Positions 320 through 4,966 of a DNA stretch of 4,966 nt are shown piece by piece (the first letter of the stretch is position 1; each line of letters opens with the position of its first letter). The stretch lies in IMG/VR virus record IMGVR_UViG_2529292747_000018, one strand, 5' to 3'. Below the pieces are notes generated by a model. The model did no database searches and was not told the origin of the DNA. It saw only the letters and a list, made by a program, of their open reading frames with translations. The position numbers and the translations under genes are program-made. The DNA is from a virus. Taxonomy: Duplodnaviria; Heunggongvirae; Uroviricota; Caudoviricetes.

Positions 320-691
320 ATGCTCATAGATTTGGTTTTACCTTACCCGCCGACGGTGAACACCTACTGGCGACGTCGTGGCAGCACATATTTTGTATCA
401 AAAGCCGGTGAGCGTTATCGCCGGGCTGTGGCGCTTATTGTTCGCCAGCAGCGGCTGAAATTAAGCCTGTCCGGACGGCTGGCAATAAAAATTATTGCAG
501 AACCACCGGATAAGCGCCGCCGTGACCTGGACAACATTCTGAAAGCACCGCTGGATGCGCTGACGCATGCGGAAGTGCTCATTGATGACGAGCAGTTTGA
601 TGAAATCAATATTGTGCGCGGTCAGCCTGTGCCAGGTGGACGGCTGGGCGTGAAGATTTACGAAATCAGAGGTGGTAACGATGGCGCGTGA
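320..691 (+). CDS. rusA: RusA-family Holliday junction resolvase (crossover junction endodeoxyribonuclease)
   Basis: 123-aa ORF with GAGG Shine-Dalgarno 6 nt upstream. Contains RRRDLDN with the conserved catalytic Asp residues of RusA, plus LPxPP...N.Y.R N-terminal and GGRL C-terminal features. Sits in the nin region just before Q. Confidence 0.9.
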
Positions 692-1052
692 TATCCAGAT
701 GGTTCTTGAGCGATGGGGGGCATGGGCAGCAAATAATCATGAAGATGTAACATGGCCCTCGATAGCTGCTGGTTTTAAAGGATTAATCCCGACTAAAGTG
801 AAATCACGTCCTAAGTGTTCTGATGATGACGCCATGATAATTTGTGGTTGTATGGCACGATTAAACAAGAATAATCAGTATTTGCACGATTTGTTGGTGG
901 ATTATTACGTAGGTGGAATGACATTTATGGCTCTTGCACGTAAGCATAGATGTTCTGATGGGCTTATTGGTAAAAGGCTTTATAAAGCGGAAGGTATTAT
1001 TGAAGGAATGCTTATGGCTCTGAATGTCCGGTTAGATATGGATATGCGGTAG
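681..1052 (+). CDS. Q: Late-gene antiterminator Q, phage 21/82-type (QuuD-like)
   Basis: Protein [25 protein letters not shown]...CGCMARL...[10 protein letters not shown] matches the recalled N-terminus of DLP12 QuuD and 82-type Q proteins. ATG at 681 is preferred over the GTG at 672 given by the ORF track. Overlaps the rusA stop by 11 nt. Stop TAG at 1050-1052. Confidence 0.85.
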
Positions 1053-1143
1053 GGATATATAGTGATGAGGGTTATGTTTTCTGTGTTTATAATTAACATG
1101 TTTATTTTTTGATGGTCATGTATTGTGGAAGGTAGATAAAATG

Positions 1144-1172
1144 TTGCCTGGTGAATTGAAAATATTGATAAT
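1144..1172 (+). promoter_or_regulatory. Candidate sigma70 promoter for the CPBP gene (TTGCCT-N17-GATAAT)
   Basis: -35-like TTGCCT at 1144-1149, 17-nt spacer, -10-like GATAAT at 1167-1172, in an AT-rich stretch about 30 nt upstream of the CPBP Shine-Dalgarno. Pattern match only. Could alternatively be part of the Q-dependent late promoter. Confidence 0.3.
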
Positions 1173-1203
1173 CAATCTTCATCATTAAATAAAAGGAGTG
1201 CTT

Positions 1204-2022
1204 ATGTGGATTGTGTTAGTACTGTCACTGTCAACTCTCAGTTGGCATAAGGTAGTGGCTTTTTCATTGTTGACGGTGTCTGTTGTCCTGGCTGTGCTTA
1301 ATGATATTATTGATTGGTCGGTGTTATTTTTTGTTGCTACAATCGTTTTTTTTATTATTTTGAAGTTCAACTGGAAATATAACGCCTGGGCTAAATCTAT
1401 ATATGAAGTTGGCATAGTTTTATCAGCCATAGCATTATTTTTCCATCTATGGCCAGGGTTTCACAATCCTGTAGTGCTAAATTCTGTTACTGTTGGCCCT
1501 CAAAGTACTCCCTATACAATGTATTTTAATTTTGATAAAGCGCTGGTGCCATTTTTGTTAGTCCTGTGTACATCTTCTTTGTTTAAAAAAGAAGTAAAAT
1601 CAGAAGTGTCTTTGTGGAAGTGGGGGGCTCTGTCGCTCTCTGTTCCTCTTATCCTGTTTTTGGCTGTTTTTTTTGGTGGATTAAAGCCAGAGATTCATTT
1701 TCCTGAGTGGTTGCCAGAGTTTATATTGGCTAATTTGTTTTTTGTGTCTCTGGCAGAGGAATCATTATTTAGAGGGTATATTCAATCACGGCTATCAGAA
1801 GTAACGTCTCCATTGGTTGCATTAATTGTGGCGGCTTTGTTGTTTGGTTTTTATCACTATTCAGGTGGTGCTTTACTTGTATTATTTGCCACGTTATCTG
1901 GTGTTGTGTATGGATTGTCATGGATGTGGAGTGGGCGTTTGTGGGTTGCCACCCTTTTCCATTTTGGTTTGAATCTGTGTCACTTGTTATTCTTTACCTA
2001 TCCATTTTTAAAACATAATTGA
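1204..2022 (+). CDS. CPBP-family (CAAX protease / Abi, PF02517-like) polytopic membrane protein on an AT-rich moron
   Basis: 272 aa from ATG 1204, with AAGGAG Shine-Dalgarno at 1193-1198 and 5-nt spacing (the ORF-track GTG at 1198 lies inside the Shine-Dalgarno). Very hydrophobic with multiple predicted TM segments. Three CPBP motifs in canonical order and spacing: EExxxR (EESLFR, 1756-1773), FxxxH (FGFYH, 1843-1857), HxxxN (HFGLN, 1960-1974). Visibly AT-rich relative to the flanking phage genes. Confidence 0.8.
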   Translation: MWIVLVLSLSTLSWHKVVAFSLLTVSVVLAVLNDIIDWSVLFFVATIVFFIILKFNWKYNAWAKSIYEVGIVLSAIALFFHLWPGFHNPVVLNSVTVGPQSTPYTMYFNFDKALVPFLLVLCTSSLFKKEVKSEVSLWKWGALSLSVPLILFLAVFFGGLKPEIHFPEWLPEFILANLFFVSLAEESLFRGYIQSRLSEVTSPLVALIVAALLFGFYHYSGGALLVLFATLSGVVYGLSWMWSGRLWVATLFHFGLNLCHLLFFTYPFLKHN

Positions 2023-2074
2023 TTTTTTCTATGGTTTTAAATTTATAAGACTGAAAAATAGCAGGACGTGACAT

Positions 2075-2116
2075 TTGCATGAAAAATATGCACGGCAAAG
2101 CATTTACGTACGTAAA
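2075..2116 (+). promoter_or_regulatory. Promoter-like region with a perfect 14-bp palindrome TTTACGTACGTAAA (2103-2116); candidate late promoter or operator
   Basis: TTGCAT at 2075-2080 with a weak -10-like AAGCAT 17 nt downstream. Alternative TTTACG-N16-TATGCT at 2103-2130. The palindrome is perfect and overlaps these elements. An intrinsic terminator follows 50-75 nt downstream. Exact promoter position is uncertain. Confidence 0.25.
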
Positions 2117-2163
2117 AAATCAGGTATGCTGTTAAGAGTGGTTATTTCGCCGCATAGCTTGAC

Positions 2164-2185
2164 CCCGCCTCTGAGCGGGTTTTTT
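2164..2185 (+). terminator. Intrinsic terminator-like hairpin (CCCGC-CTCTGA-GCGGG) followed by T6
   Basis: 5-bp all-GC stem at 2164-2168 and 2175-2179, 6-nt loop, then TTTTTT at 2180-2185. Lies downstream of the CPBP gene and the promoter-like region. Confidence 0.5.
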
Positions 2186-2308: not shown

Positions 2309-2671
2309 ATGCTGAAACAGCAGGATATGACAGAAACCGCCAGAGTTGTGTTTGATGAATTAAGCGTCACCGAACCGGCGACGGTCGGGGAGATTGCGCA
2401 GAATACGTACCTTTCACGCGAGCGCTGCCAGTTAATACTGACCCAGCTGGTTATGCGGGTCTGGCAGACTATCAGTTCGGTTGTTACAGACGCCTTCAGT
2501 CCTGAAGGCTTTTTTATTTGTGGTAAATGGGCGGCTGGTGGGTGTAAGGGGCACCCACCAGCCATCTGCTCATGCGTTGGGTTCACAAGCAAACCTCAGG
2601 CCCACTGCTTTGCGCAAAAGCAGAATGAGCCTATCAGAGACAGGCTTAATGATCCATGCTTAATACTGTAA
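2309..2671 (+). CDS. Hypothetical small protein; N-terminal ~60 aa plausibly coding, C-terminal half doubtful
   Basis: 120-aa ORF with a weak ribosome-binding site. The N-terminal part (TARVVFDELSVTEPATVGEIAQNTYLSRERCQLILTQL) looks like a small helical or HTH-like protein. The rest is translated through a textbook intrinsic terminator (2492-2519) and a perfect 12-bp hairpin (2533-2563), which argues against genuine coding. Confidence 0.25.
   Translation: MLKQQDMTETARVVFDELSVTEPATVGEIAQNTYLSRERCQLILTQLVMRVWQTISSVVTDAFSPEGFFICGKWAAGGCKGHPPAICSCVGFTSKPQAHCFAQKQNEPIRDRLNDPCLIL
2492..2519 (+). terminator. Strong intrinsic terminator (GCCTTCA-GTCC-TGAAGGC followed by TTTTTTATTT)
   Basis: Perfect 7-bp stem at 2492-2498 and 2503-2509, 4-nt loop, then a T-run at 2510-2519. 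Candidate for the Q-antiterminated late terminator tR' or an attenuator upstream of the methyltransferase. Confidence 0.6.
2533..2563. repeat. Perfect 12-bp inverted repeat GGCTGGTGGGTG / CACCCACCAGCC with 7-nt spacer
   Basis: Arms at 2533-2544 and 2552-2563 are exact reverse complements. No flanking U-run on either strand, so it is not a classical terminator. Stable RNA hairpin or protein-binding site. Confidence 0.6.
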
Positions 2672-3378
2672 AAATATCCAGTTGTGAGTTAATCAACGCC
2701 GACTGCCTGGAATTTATGCGGTCGTTACCCGAAAATTCTGTTGACCTGATAGTCACGGACCCGCCGTACTTCAAAGTGAAACCCGAGGGCTGGGATAACC
2801 AGTGGGCGGGTGATGAAGATTACCTGAAGTGGCTGGACCAGTGTCTTGCGCAGTTCTGGCGGGTGCTGAAACCTGCCGGAAGTCTTTACCTGTTCTGTGG
2901 CCATCGTCTGGCATCTGACACCGAAATCATGATGCGTGAGCGGTTTAACGTGCTGAACCATATCATCTGGGCAAAGCCGTCCGGACGCTGGAACGGGTGC
3001 AACAAGGAAAGCCTGCGGGCGTATTTCCCCGCCACAGAGCGCATTCTGTTCGCAGAGCATTATCAGGGGCCGTATCGTCCGAAAGATGCCGGGTATGAGG
3101 CGAAGGGTAGGACACTGAAACAGCATGTGATGGCCCCGCTGATTGCTTACTTTCGTGATGCGCGCGCTGTCCTGGGGATAACGGCAAAACAGATTGCAGA
3201 TGCCACAGGAAAGAAAAACATGGTGTCGCACTGGTTCAGTGCCGGTCAGTGGCAGCTGCCGAACGAAAGCGATTATCTGAAATTACAGGCACTGTTTGCC
3301 CGGGTGGCAGAAGAGAAGCATCAGCGGGGTGAACTGGAAAGCCCCACCACCAGCTGGTGGATACGTATGCCTCTCTGA
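2656..3378 (+). CDS. DNA methyltransferase (PF01555-like, beta-class N6-adenine/N4-cytosine), N-terminal fragment with DPPY motif; frame-split from the downstream part
   Basis: N-terminus LINADCLEFMRSLPENSVDLIVTDPPY carries catalytic motif IV (DPPY) in the arrangement typical of phage and ParB-linked amino-methyltransferases. The ORF ends at TGA 3376-3378 while the family's SAM-binding motif lies in the next ORF in another frame. Confidence 0.8.
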   Translation: MLNTVKISSCELINADCLEFMRSLPENSVDLIVTDPPYFKVKPEGWDNQWAGDEDYLKWLDQCLAQFWRVLKPAGSLYLFCGHRLASDTEIMMRERFNVLNHIIWAKPSGRWNGCNKESLRAYFPATERILFAEHYQGPYRPKDAGYEAKGRTLKQHVMAPLIAYFRDARAVLGITAKQIADATGKKNMVSHWFSAGQWQLPNESDYLKLQALFARVAEEKHQRGELESPTTSWWIRMPL

Positions 3379-3713
3379 ACCGACAGTATGCGGAGCTGCA
3401 GAGTGAATATAAGCATCTGCGGCGGTATTTCGGTGTGACGGTGCAGGTGCCGTACACCGATGTGTGGACGTATAAACCGGTGCAGTACTATCCAGGGAAA
3501 CATCCGTGCGAAAAACCGGCAGAAATGTTGCAGCAGATAATCAGCGCAAGCAGTCGTCCGGGAGACCTGGTTGCAGATTTCTTCATGGGGTCGGGGTCGA
3601 CAGTGAAAGCAGCGATGGCGCTGGGACGTCGTGCAACTGGCGTTGAACTGGAGACTGAACGTTTTGAGCAGACGGTGCGGGAAGTACAGGATTTAATCAT
3701 TCGTAACGGATGA
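3357..3713 (+). CDS. DNA methyltransferase C-terminal fragment (HPxxKP and FxGSGST SAM-binding motif I), same gene as 2656-3378 in a different frame
   Basis: Contains KHPCEKP and DFFMGSGSTVKAAMALGRR, the canonical C-terminal PF01555 signatures. The reading frame is open upstream of the annotated GTG start back to 3333 and overlaps the end of the N-terminal fragment, implying a single gene interrupted by a 1-nt indel or slip. Confidence 0.75.
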   Translation: MDTYASLNRQYAELQSEYKHLRRYFGVTVQVPYTDVWTYKPVQYYPGKHPCEKPAEMLQQIISASSRPGDLVADFFMGSGSTVKAAMALGRRATGVELETERFEQTVREVQDLIIRNG

Positions 3714-3753: not shown

Positions 3754-3829
3754 GGCCCTTTAGCTCAGCGGTGAGAGCGAGCGACTCATAATCGCCAGGT
3801 CGCTGGTTCAAATCCAGCAAGGGCCACCA
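3754..3829 (+). tRNA. tRNA-Ile2 (anticodon CAU, lysidine-type, AUA-decoding), ileX/ileZ-like
   Basis: 76 nt with cloverleaf: acceptor GGCCCTT/AAGGGCC, D-arm GCTC/GAGC, anticodon loop CTCATAA, T-arm GCTGG-TTCAAAT-CCAGC, 3' ACCA. Near-identical in layout to recalled E. coli ileX. The CAU anticodon could formally be Met, but similarity to ileX favours Ile2. Confidence 0.85.
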
Positions 3830-3830
3830 A

Positions 3831-3896
3831 CCGCCACTAGCTCATCAGGAAAGAACGTCACCCTGTGCGAGATTCGGAGTCCCCGGTGGCGGTCCA
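3831..3896 (+). other. Degenerate tRNA-like remnant (possible decayed argN-like tRNA)
   Basis: Perfect 7-bp acceptor-like pairing CCGCCAC (3831-3837) with GTGGCGG (3886-3892), followed by T-CCA, plus a D-arm-like TAGCTCA start and a T-loop-like TTCGGAGTCC. No foldable anticodon arm and only 66 nt long. Confidence 0.3.
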
Positions 3897-3909
3897 TTAT
3901 CGGTATTCT

Positions 3910-3986
3910 GCGTTGTTAGCTCAGCCGGACAGAGCAATTGCCTTCTAAGCAATCGGTCACTGGTCCGAATCCAGTACAACGCGCCA
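3910..3986 (+). tRNA. tRNA-Arg (anticodon UCU, AGA-decoding), argO/argU-like
   Basis: 77 nt: acceptor GCGTTGT/ACAACGC (perfect), D-arm GCTC/GAGC, anticodon stem ATTGC/GCAAT with loop CTTCTAA, T-arm ACTGG-TCCGAAT-CCAGT, discriminator G plus CCA. T-loop reads TCC instead of the usual TTC. Confidence 0.8.
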
Positions 3987-4171
3987 CACCACACTTATCT
4001 GCCCTGACTCTCTTTTGCGGGCTTTTTATTACAGGAAAGACACCGGACAGTGAAATGTTAAATGCCTCACAATTCAGGCAGTTGAATGTTGCCTGACATG
4101 CTGAGCGTTTGTTAAAAAAATTTCGCATGGTGAATCCCCCTGTGCGGAGGGGCAATCAGCAACCAGGTATA

Positions 4172-4180
4172 TGTGATAAT
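4172..4180 (+). promoter_or_regulatory. Candidate extended -10 promoter element (TGtGATAAT)
   Basis: TG at 4172-4173 one nt upstream of GATAAT (4175-4180). No convincing -35. Would start a transcript about 95 nt upstream of the terminator at 4259-4283. Confidence 0.2.
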
Positions 4181-4258
4181 CGCGGATTCAGGTGCTGATA
4201 CTGAATTCACCGGGAGGCACCCGGCACCATGCAAGAAAAAGAATGTGCATGCAAACAT

Positions 4259-4283
4259 GCCCCTCTCCGGAGGGGCATTTTTT
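4259..4283 (+). terminator. Intrinsic terminator (GCCCCTC-TCCG-GAGGGGC followed by ATTTTTT)
   Basis: Perfect 7-bp GC-rich stem at 4259-4265 and 4270-4276, 4-nt loop, then a T-run at 4278-4283. Confidence 0.6.
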
Positions 4284-4289
4284 ATGGGT

Positions 4290-4314
4290 AAAAAATGCCC
4301 GAATGGGTTCGGGC
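4290..4314 (-). terminator. Possible minus-strand intrinsic terminator (hairpin GCCCGAA-TGGG-TTCGGGC with adjacent A-run on + strand)
   Basis: Perfect 7-bp stem at 4297-4303 and 4308-4314. On the minus strand it is followed by a U-run (complement of A6 at 4290-4295). Together with 4259-4283 it forms a back-to-back terminator pair. No obvious minus-strand gene to terminate, so function is uncertain. Confidence 0.3.
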
Positions 4315-4375
4315 AATAGCATGAGATACTGATATTGTTGTGTTGTTATCGTGTGGATTTTAACCAGGGTTTATC

Positions 4376-4498: not shown

Positions 4499-4966
4499 AT
4501 GACATTTAAACATTATGATGTTGTCAGGGCGGCGTCGCCGTCAGACCTTGCGGAAAAGCTGACACACAAACTGAAAGAGGGCTGGCAGCCATACGGCGGA
4601 CCGGTTGCCATTACGCCGTACACACTGATGCAGGCGGTGGCTATTGAAGGAGATCCACAGGTCGGCCCTTCATCTAAGCCGGACTGGTTCTACGTGGTTG
4701 TGCTTGCCGGACAGTCCAACGGCATGGCTTACGGTGAAGGGCTTCCGCTGCCGGATTCATACGATGCTCCGGATCCGCGCATTAAACAGCTGGCGCGCCG
4801 CAGCACGGTAACTCCGGGTGGAGAGAGTTGTACGTATAACGACATCATTCCGGCCGACCACTGCCTGCATGATGTGCAGGATATGAGTACGCTGAATCAT
4901 CCGAAGGCAGACCTGAGCAAAGGGCAGTACGGCTGTGTCGGCCAGGGCTTACATATTGCCAAAAAA
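4499..4966 (+). CDS. nanS-p: Prophage NanS-p-type sialate O-acetylesterase (N-terminal DUF1737-like domain plus start of SGNH/SASA hydrolase), 5' partial, continues past window end
   Basis: Open frame from ATG 4499 (GGGAGG Shine-Dalgarno at 4489-4494) to the window end, 156 codons with no stop. Translation MTFKHYDVVRAASPSDLAEKL...FYVVVLAGQSNGMAYGEG matches the recalled N-terminus of the YjhS/NanS-p esterases found next to stx in Stx phages. GQSN is the catalytic-serine block of sialate O-acetylesterase-type hydrolases. Confidence 0.85.
   Translation, partial: MTFKHYDVVRAASPSDLAEKLTHKLKEGWQPYGGPVAITPYTLMQAVAIEGDPQVGPSSKPDWFYVVVLAGQSNGMAYGEGLPLPDSYDAPDPRIKQLARRSTVTPGGESCTYNDIIPADHCLHDVQDMSTLNHPKADLSKGQYGCVGQGLHIAKK

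Follow-up and report, generated by a model that had tools for sequence, protein, structure and literature searches.

Which sequence serves as the late promoter pR' of a lambdoid Q gene when AT-rich cargo follows the Q stop codon? This question is raised by a stretch of 4,966 nucleotides (hereafter the window), a lambdoid prophage segment that codes, in this order, for the C-terminal part of a DUF968 protein, RusA, the antiterminator Q and a CPBP-type membrane protease. Downstream of the CPBP gene lie the region 2103-2185, a TrmB-like ORF, a frameshifted DNA methylase, two tRNAs, STnc100, AgvB and the start of a nanS-like gene. The window stops inside the latter, and lysis genes do not occur before this point; in PhiR40_1, SfV, K-12 and Sakai Sp4, holin and lysin genes are found downstream. 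The stretch 1000-2320 is present at ≥99% identity in 547 complete Escherichia coli genomes, with O157:H7 predominating among those listed, and its counterpart in Sakai prophage Sp4 comprises ECs_1084 (Q), ECs_1085 (CPBP) and ECs_1086. A sequence-only reading had proposed that 2068-2185 represents a displaced pR'-tR' unit. The signals on which it drew (TTGCAT at 2075-2080, TTTACG, TATGCT, a palindrome, and a hairpin followed by six T residues) are all found at their places in the sequence and by the terminator scan, as is the change from AT-rich to phage-type DNA, with a GC content of 0.46-0.52 past position 2100. The coordinates of all features are collected in Table 1.

Table 1. Features of the window relevant to the Q-pR' region, with the basis of each assignment
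Feature	Position	Strand	Basis
Q gene, 123 aa, QuuD/Q933 subgroup of the Q21 structural family	681-1052	+	Pfam PF06530, E=8e-52
Q helix-turn-helix (predicted)	residues 82-113		AlphaFold helices 82-89 and 93-113
Q variable recognition segment (predicted)	residues ~88-101, nt ~942-983		turn and first half of second helix (AlphaFold)
AT-rich cargo, CPBP/Rce1-like membrane protease cassette	1053-2102	+	GC 0.32-0.41 (1000-2100)
CPBP gene, CDS	1204-2022	+	Pfam PF02517
Palindrome TTTACGTACGTAAA, proposed Q-binding element (QBE)	2103-2116	.	sequence; covariation with Q helix
Spacer with A tract	2117-2124	+	column counts, 94 upstream sequences
Proposed -10 hexamer TATGCT of pR', family consensus TAnnnT	2125-2130	+	column counts
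Conserved leader block; GTTAAG (2131-2136) complementary to CTTGAC (2158-2163)	2131-2163	+	covariation
Predicted transcription start, A	2137	+	homology to mapped Sakai Sp5 PR' start
5'-proximal leader stem-loop GUGGU/GCCGC	2138-2153	+	MFE fold
First intrinsic terminator, 5-bp stem CCCGC/GCGGG, 6-nt loop, T6	2164-2185 (stem-loop 2164-2179)	+	terminator scan
Next terminator-like hairpin, 7-bp stem and T6, end of TrmB-like ORF	2492-2517	+	terminator scan
tRNA, anticodon CAT, ileZ-like	3754-3829		ARAGORN
tRNA Arg TCT	3910-3986		ARAGORN
STnc100, prophage sRNA	4096-4289	+	Rfam match
AgvB, anti-GcvB sRNA	4290-4351	-	Rfam match

To place the Q protein, we combined sequence and structure searches. A PDB sequence search with the window Q matched Q21 (E=1e-7). 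The AlphaFold model of Q (pLDDT 76), for which database homologues were supplied, likewise had Q21 as its best Foldseek match (TM 0.67), with ECF sigma region 4 in complex with -35 DNA coming next. The earlier reading had referred to phage 21/82-type prophages; this Q is a member of the phage 21 structural family (PF06530), within which it belongs to the QuuD/Q933 subgroup, and is not of the phage-82 type. The same subgroup takes in the Q that stands behind Shiga toxin 2 expression.

We collected related loci in two ways. The first scan looked for the exact leader pattern in viral contigs and returned 127 sites. Where more than 1.6 kb of upstream DNA was available, a PF06530 Q gene lies on the same strand, 3-2459 bp 5' of the site, with the single exception of L059, which is also devoid of the palindrome. 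The second scan was protein-guided and used one genome per species, yielding 80 Q loci from Escherichia, Citrobacter, Pantoea, Yersinia, Serratia, Proteus, Xenorhabdus, Photorhabdus and other genera. In most of these loci an A-rich patch, a dyad element, an A tract, six variable bases and TAnnnT succeed one another, and on the 3' side of TAnnnT there follow G(T/A)TAAGAGTG..., a small hairpin and a terminator. Over both scans the distance from Q to the element ranges from -2 to 2916 bp. Overall, in 163 related loci the pR' architecture is always located 3' of a PF06530 Q gene, either abutting it or separated from it by 0.6-2.9 kb of AT-rich cargo that varies between loci. Phages with a lambda-type Q (PF03589), namely SfV and Stx2_EH1910, share with the window only the terminator and the DNA downstream of it; upstream they have TAAATT...AACGATGGG, the lambda pR' -10 element and pause motif. 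The terminator is thus a common module, whereas the ~60 bp before it are specific to the Q family, as one would expect if they hold a pR' promoter together with Q recognition sequences.

What part of this architecture is the promoter? Among 94 distinct upstream sequences, the first position of the TAnnnT hexamer is T in 92, the second is A in all 94 and the sixth is T in 93, and these three positions are the ones that define a -10 element. Equally invariant (94/94) is the A at alignment position -17 (2114 in the window), next to which comes an A/T run. Combined with TTTACG (2103-2108) across a 16-nt spacer, TATGCT matches 8 of 12 consensus positions, one short of the threshold of 9, and this is why the pair is absent from our consensus promoter scan. 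The position of the start is provided by a homologue. For the Stx2a phage Sp5 of strain Sakai, the PR' start mapped by dRNA-seq and the StxS 3' end mapped by Term-seq are 258 nt apart (Sy et al. 2020, PMC7547250). In our copy of the Sp5 locus (L213) the T-run of the StxS terminator ends at position 1303, so that the start falls on position 1046, the A of AGTGG immediately after GATAAG. This is exactly 7 nt past TATCAT, and the equivalent base of the window is A2137. Such spacing identifies TATGCT as the likely -10 element and GTTAAG as the discriminator, and the proposal of a pR'-tR' unit is supported by this mapped homologue. TTGCAT, in contrast, which had been suggested as a promoter part, sits in non-conserved cargo, the homology with relatives starting only at ~2100-2103.

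The predicted transcript would begin with a small stem-loop. The base pairs of its inner stem persist from genus to genus, as G-C, A-U or G-U, in 43 diverse sequences; RNAalifold returned no consensus structure for the leader, and the hairpin therefore rests on the pair counts. A second complementarity, between G(T/A)TAAG and CTTA(A/T)C, covaries across genera (GTTAAG occurs with CTTAA, GATAAG with CTTAT): at one pair UA is seen 17 times and AU 13 times, and 83% of cells are paired versus 31-46% in slid registers. Because the GTTAAG arm lies 5' of the inferred start, this pairing is impossible within a pR' transcript, and it could be relevant only to RNA that reads through from Q or the cargo. 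The hairpin at the end of the leader is kept behind both PF06530-type and lambda-type Q genes, and its SfV homologue is annotated as a putative terminator. Termination there would give an RNA of ~49 nt. In Sp5, the homologous hairpin at +27 to +49 is read through to yield the 258-nt long StxS; given this and the stem of just 5 bp in the window, the stop may be partial or leaky. The hairpin near the end of the TrmB-like ORF may serve unmodified pR' transcripts as a second stop.

The leader had also been compared to 6S and StxS. The latter likeness holds for the promoter and the first ~49 nt, which resemble the 5' end of long StxS, and does not extend to the 74-nt StxS part: the window lacks the 74-nt Hfq-binding 3' fragment together with its terminator, and blastn against the Sp5 interval between Q and the tRNA gave only matches of ≤12 nt, the best two of them within the first ~50 nt of the leader. 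With Rfam 15 covariance models no hit at E≤1 was obtained in 2068-2185, the hits in the window being STnc100, AgvB and the two tRNAs elsewhere. The Hfq-site table of Tree et al. 2014 has no orphan Hfq-bound sRNA at the Sp4 position. We also considered HnrS (EcOnc10-12), a multicopy 66-nt prophage sRNA, as the identity of the element and rejected it, as HnrS is located past Rz and on the other strand.

The palindrome is perfect over 14 bp and is the sole copy in the window even when up to 3 mismatches are allowed. It was missed by the repeat search and confirmed by eye and by a pattern search. A perfect 14-bp palindrome is expected by chance ~0.3 times in 5 kb (4950/4^7), and the window alone is therefore no proof; what makes the palindrome significant is that it is conserved and covaries from locus to locus. 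If transcription starts at 2137, the dyad center is at about -27.5 and the palindrome spans -34 to -21, the usual place of a -35 element; its left half, TTTACG, doubles as a -35-like hexamer with a 4/6 match. The symmetric element varies in sequence between loci, yet all nine classes that we distinguished are dyad-symmetric and in a fixed register to TAnnnT.

If the element is recognized by Q, its sequence should follow the Q recognition helix, and this is what we observe. The helix CSDG.IGK, to which the window Q belongs, is accompanied by TTTACGTACGTAAA, CSDT.IGK by TTTACGATCGTAAA, RSDCWVGR by TTTACAATCGTAAA, CSDGT(I/V)R by GCGTACGC, K(D/S)EK.IRI by GCGG(T/A)CCGC, ISHN.V by TGTAATTACA, SHT.(I/V)L by TGGAATTCCA, ISLNQV by TGTTATAACA and CSEGK(I/V)R by TTCGT(A/T)ACGAA. 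For 164 loci, the agreement between helix class and palindrome class has a purity of 0.94 versus 0.36 after shuffling (0 of 10,000 shuffles as high), a statistic inflated by co-inheritance, as Q and the palindrome are physically linked. In the three largest classes, the match holds over 24, 21 and 17 different spacings between Q and the promoter. The palindrome is not predicted by the N-terminal half of Q: one N-terminal cluster includes three palindrome classes, each with a helix of its own. Sp5, which was held out of the class definition, behaves as the classes predict, in that its Q933 (CSDTCIGK) adjoins TTTACGATCGTAAA. There is one exception to the G/T rule relating helix and palindrome (L142). 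Based on this covariation, we infer that the palindrome is very probably a Q-binding element. The dimeric regulator for which it had been suggested as an operator would then most probably be Q itself. In Sp5 the palindrome (1012-1025 of L213) contains the Q stop codon TAA (1022-1024), so that the Q coding sequence ends within the proposed binding site of its own product.

The distance between Q and its presumed site in the window is due to the cargo. In relatives that have a Q of the same class and no cargo, the palindrome is 15-56 bp from the Q stop codon, in agreement with the earlier proposal that the CPBP gene was inserted between Q and its promoter. Homology with relatives begins at the very edge of the palindrome: according to phage BLAST, the sequence from ~2103-2130 onward is common to many Stx and non-Stx lambdoid phages, and 1053-2100 is not. 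In Stx2_EH2201 a 126-aa PF06530 Q terminates 38 bp 5' of the conserved leader; phiP27, PhiR40_1 and Stx2a_1447 have 0.6-1.7 kb of unrelated genes in between. The cargo segment occurs in E. coli genomes only together with CPBP, and it includes three overlapping sigma-70-like promoter matches at 1113-1185, just 5' of the CPBP start. These likely represent the moron's own promoter. The same explanation is more likely for 1144-1172, which had been put forward as an alternative late promoter, because it falls within the CPBP-only DNA. The terminator scan found nothing between the CPBP stop codon and 2164, and the CPBP mRNA thus probably ends at the pR' leader terminator.

Such insertions are not peculiar to the CPBP cassette. 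In 37 of the 62 species-representative loci, and likewise in Stx2_EH2201, Q and the element lie next to each other; in 24 of the 62 they are at least 600 bp apart. In the viral set, which is rich in E. coli phages, an insert is present in 92 of 101 loci. Altogether we found 46 distinct inserts of 0.6-2.9 kb in the Q-pR' gap (loci L002, L003, L005, L014, L028, L050, L095 and L105 are among those that carry one), with a GC content of 0.31-0.42 among those inspected. The main ORF is antisense to the late operon in 42 of the 46, the CPBP cassette being one of the few inserts on the same strand. The gap contents include the NmpC/Lc porin, lipoproteins, a NYN nuclease and matches to PADLOC defence models: PD-Lambda-1 (phiP27, L22), PDC-S20 (a KAP NTPase) and PDC-M68A (an HNH nuclease). 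The gap is thus a frequent landing site for cargo and anti-phage defence genes.

Further downstream, the TrmB-like ORF (2309-2671) codes for 120 aa in the window compared with 65 aa in relatives, and the annotation of a near-identical O157:H7 genome treats this gene as a pseudogene with a frameshift. The DNA methylase (2656-3713) is broken into 2656-3378 and 3357-3713; both the extended ORF and the split methylase point to prophage decay. The ~80 nt between the two tRNAs (3830-3909) have tRNA-like ends (ACCGCCAC...GTGGCGGTCCA) and may be the remains of argN, a gene that Sakai Sp4 has in intact form. STnc100 (157.6 bits) and AgvB (96.5 bits) are convergent and precede the nanS-like gene.

Could the conserved hexamer have another role? 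The Q systems of lambda, 21 and 82 each have a sigma-dependent pause element. We found no conserved nAnnnT or other -10-like hexamer at +1 to +12, where the candidates TATTTC (window), TACTTC (K-12) and TACATT (Sp5) are -10-like in part only. It might be argued that TAnnnT is itself the pause element, that an A-tract hexamer at ~2113-2118 is the -10 and that transcription starts near 2124-2126. Such an arrangement would match the phage 21 layout, with the QBE directly next to the -10 and the pause element where the transcript begins. The invariant A at 2114 is 12 bp 5' of TAnnnT, which is the lambda -10-to-pause spacing, and the palindrome would come to about -22 to -9, near the -25 to -12 of the Q21 QBE. 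Moreover, GTTAAG would be transcribed, and its covariation with CTTAAC explained. However, mapping places the Sp5 PR' start 7 nt past TAnnnT and not before it. The A-tract hexamer lacks the final T in 78 of 94 sequences and has no conserved -35 upstream; with the cargo junction at the palindrome, in the window as in K-12, any upstream -35 would be lost. We therefore regard the pause assignment as unlikely.

Two other explanations were considered. A palindrome over the -35 region is the classic layout of an operator, and the next gene in many relatives is a winged-helix ORF; accordingly, 2103-2185 might be an ordinary promoter and operator of the TrmB-like gene (2309), controlled by some other dimeric repressor and unlinked to Q. 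Yet the element stands behind Q whatever follows it (a holin gene in K-12- and Xenorhabdus-type loci, a methylase or tRNAs elsewhere), and the palindrome class tracks the recognition helix of Q. Furthermore, the TrmB-like region is near-identical across palindrome classes and is also found behind lambda-type Q genes, so it cannot set the specificity; this makes the operator a very unlikely explanation. As for the hairpin, it could simply terminate the CPBP cassette, the promoter and palindrome being products of chance at a mosaic junction or recombination hot spot. This would be consistent with the lack of any other terminator between the CPBP stop and 2164, with the homology breakpoint at the palindrome edge, and with the fact that 14-bp palindromes are not rare in 5 kb. 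But hundreds of loci have the block and no CPBP, many genera of Enterobacterales carry it, its nine classes are all dyad-symmetric in one register, and the homologous Sp5 promoter is active. This explanation is accordingly the most improbable of those considered.

Taken together, the data favor, with a probability of about 80%, the assignment of 2103-2185 as pR', short leader and first terminator for the Q gene at 681-1052, with the palindrome as the Q site and CPBP as a moron in the gap. Under this assignment, host RNA polymerase with sigma-70 would use TATGCT as its -10 and start near A2137, as judged from the mapped start of the homologue. Q would bind in the -35 place, via its sigma-region-4-like helix-turn-helix, and probably does so as two protomers on inverted half-sites ~8 bp apart. 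In the absence of Q, the transcript would form the 5' stem-loop, and some transcripts would stop at the leader terminator, others further 3'. Once loaded with Q, the polymerase would read through to the late region. The gap that holds the CPBP moron is empty in many relatives and holds other cargo elsewhere. One can speculate further that, for the QuuD/Q933-type Q, the dyad site replaces the -35 element, with RNA polymerase engaged while sigma region 2 still holds the -10 (at initiation or early escape), so that no separate downstream pause is needed, and that at least nine classes set late-gene cross-activation among co-resident prophages. We put this forward only as a tentative idea, which is at present rather doubtful.

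The element belongs to a known kind and is in itself an ordinary late promoter. What may be new is that the Q site is palindromic and class-specific, and that the gap is a hot spot for cargo; of either we found no description in the literature consulted, a body that does not include several key older papers; Zhang et al. 2018 compares pR' regions and mentions neither the palindrome nor specificity classes. The results have practical consequences. They locate pR' even with Q up to 2.9 kb away, which matters for annotation and for the design of reporters. Strains of O157:H7 and their relatives harbor many lambdoid prophages, and their late-gene and Shiga-toxin output depends on the pairing of Q with pR'. 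A helix-to-palindrome code would predict which prophages cross-activate one another: the window Q would act on GTAC-centred sites and Q933 on GATC-centred ones.

How does the element compare with Q systems that have been characterized? The logic is that of lambda pR'-6S-tR': a Q gene, a constitutive promoter, a short terminated leader and the late genes. The lambda leader is 194 nt long. Lambda has an unrelated Q family and promoter and leader sequences that differ from those of the window, even if the lambda-type relatives SfV and Stx2_EH1910 use the window's very terminator and downstream module. With phage 21 the window shares the Q fold, including a DNA-binding domain that resembles sigma region 4, and in both cases the QBE (a proposed one in the window) is inside the late promoter with two half-sites ~8 bp apart. 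Nevertheless, the phage 21 QBE is a direct repeat, TGAGCA-N2-TGAGCA, at -25 to -12, and a separate pause element causes a pause at +18 (Yin et al. 2019, bioRxiv 10.1101/651190; Shi et al. 2019, PMC6606751), whereas the window site is an inverted repeat of other sequence at -34 to -21, devoid of the direct TGAGCA repeat, and no separate pause element is evident. The proteins differ as well, the window Q having 123 aa and a short turn, and Q21 having 162 aa and a long helix-turn[loop]-helix.

In the K-12 prophage DLP12, the palindrome, TATGCT and leader are identical to those of the window and the terminator is homologous. The cargo differs, consisting of the nmpC porin gene (on the minus strand) and IS5 between quuD and the element, which is located ~170 bp 5' of essD, directly before the holin gene. 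A review-type statement in PMC7918800, citing Rueggeberg 2013, places the DLP12 lysis cassette under Q control. The primers of the reporter fragment used there (-121 to +650) imply an essD '+1' at position 4375 of our K-12 locus (L131), by the nmpC start and ~355 bp 5' of the pR'-like element (4696-4775); it follows that the Q-type promoter of K-12 may not be the site that was treated as the essD promoter in that study. Finally, the PR' of the Stx phages Sp5 and Sp15 (933W, H-19B type) is homologous to the window promoter. The Q933 of Sp5 is a PF06530 protein of 144 aa, and directly 3' of its gene is the sequence AAAAAATAG-TTTACGATCGTAAA-AATCTGCA-TATCAT-GATAAGAGTGGTTAC...CCCGCCGATGCGCGGGTTTTTTT. 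Sp5 thus has in common with the window the Q subgroup, the A-rich tract, a 14-bp palindrome, the A tract, TAnnnT, the G(A/T)TAAGAGTGGTTAC leader and the CCCGC hairpin with its T-run. The two differ in the palindrome center, GATC in Sp5 versus GTAC in the window, and correspondingly in the Q helix, CSDT versus CSDG; and the Sp5 promoter abuts Q, whereas in the window 1,050 bp of cargo lie between the two.
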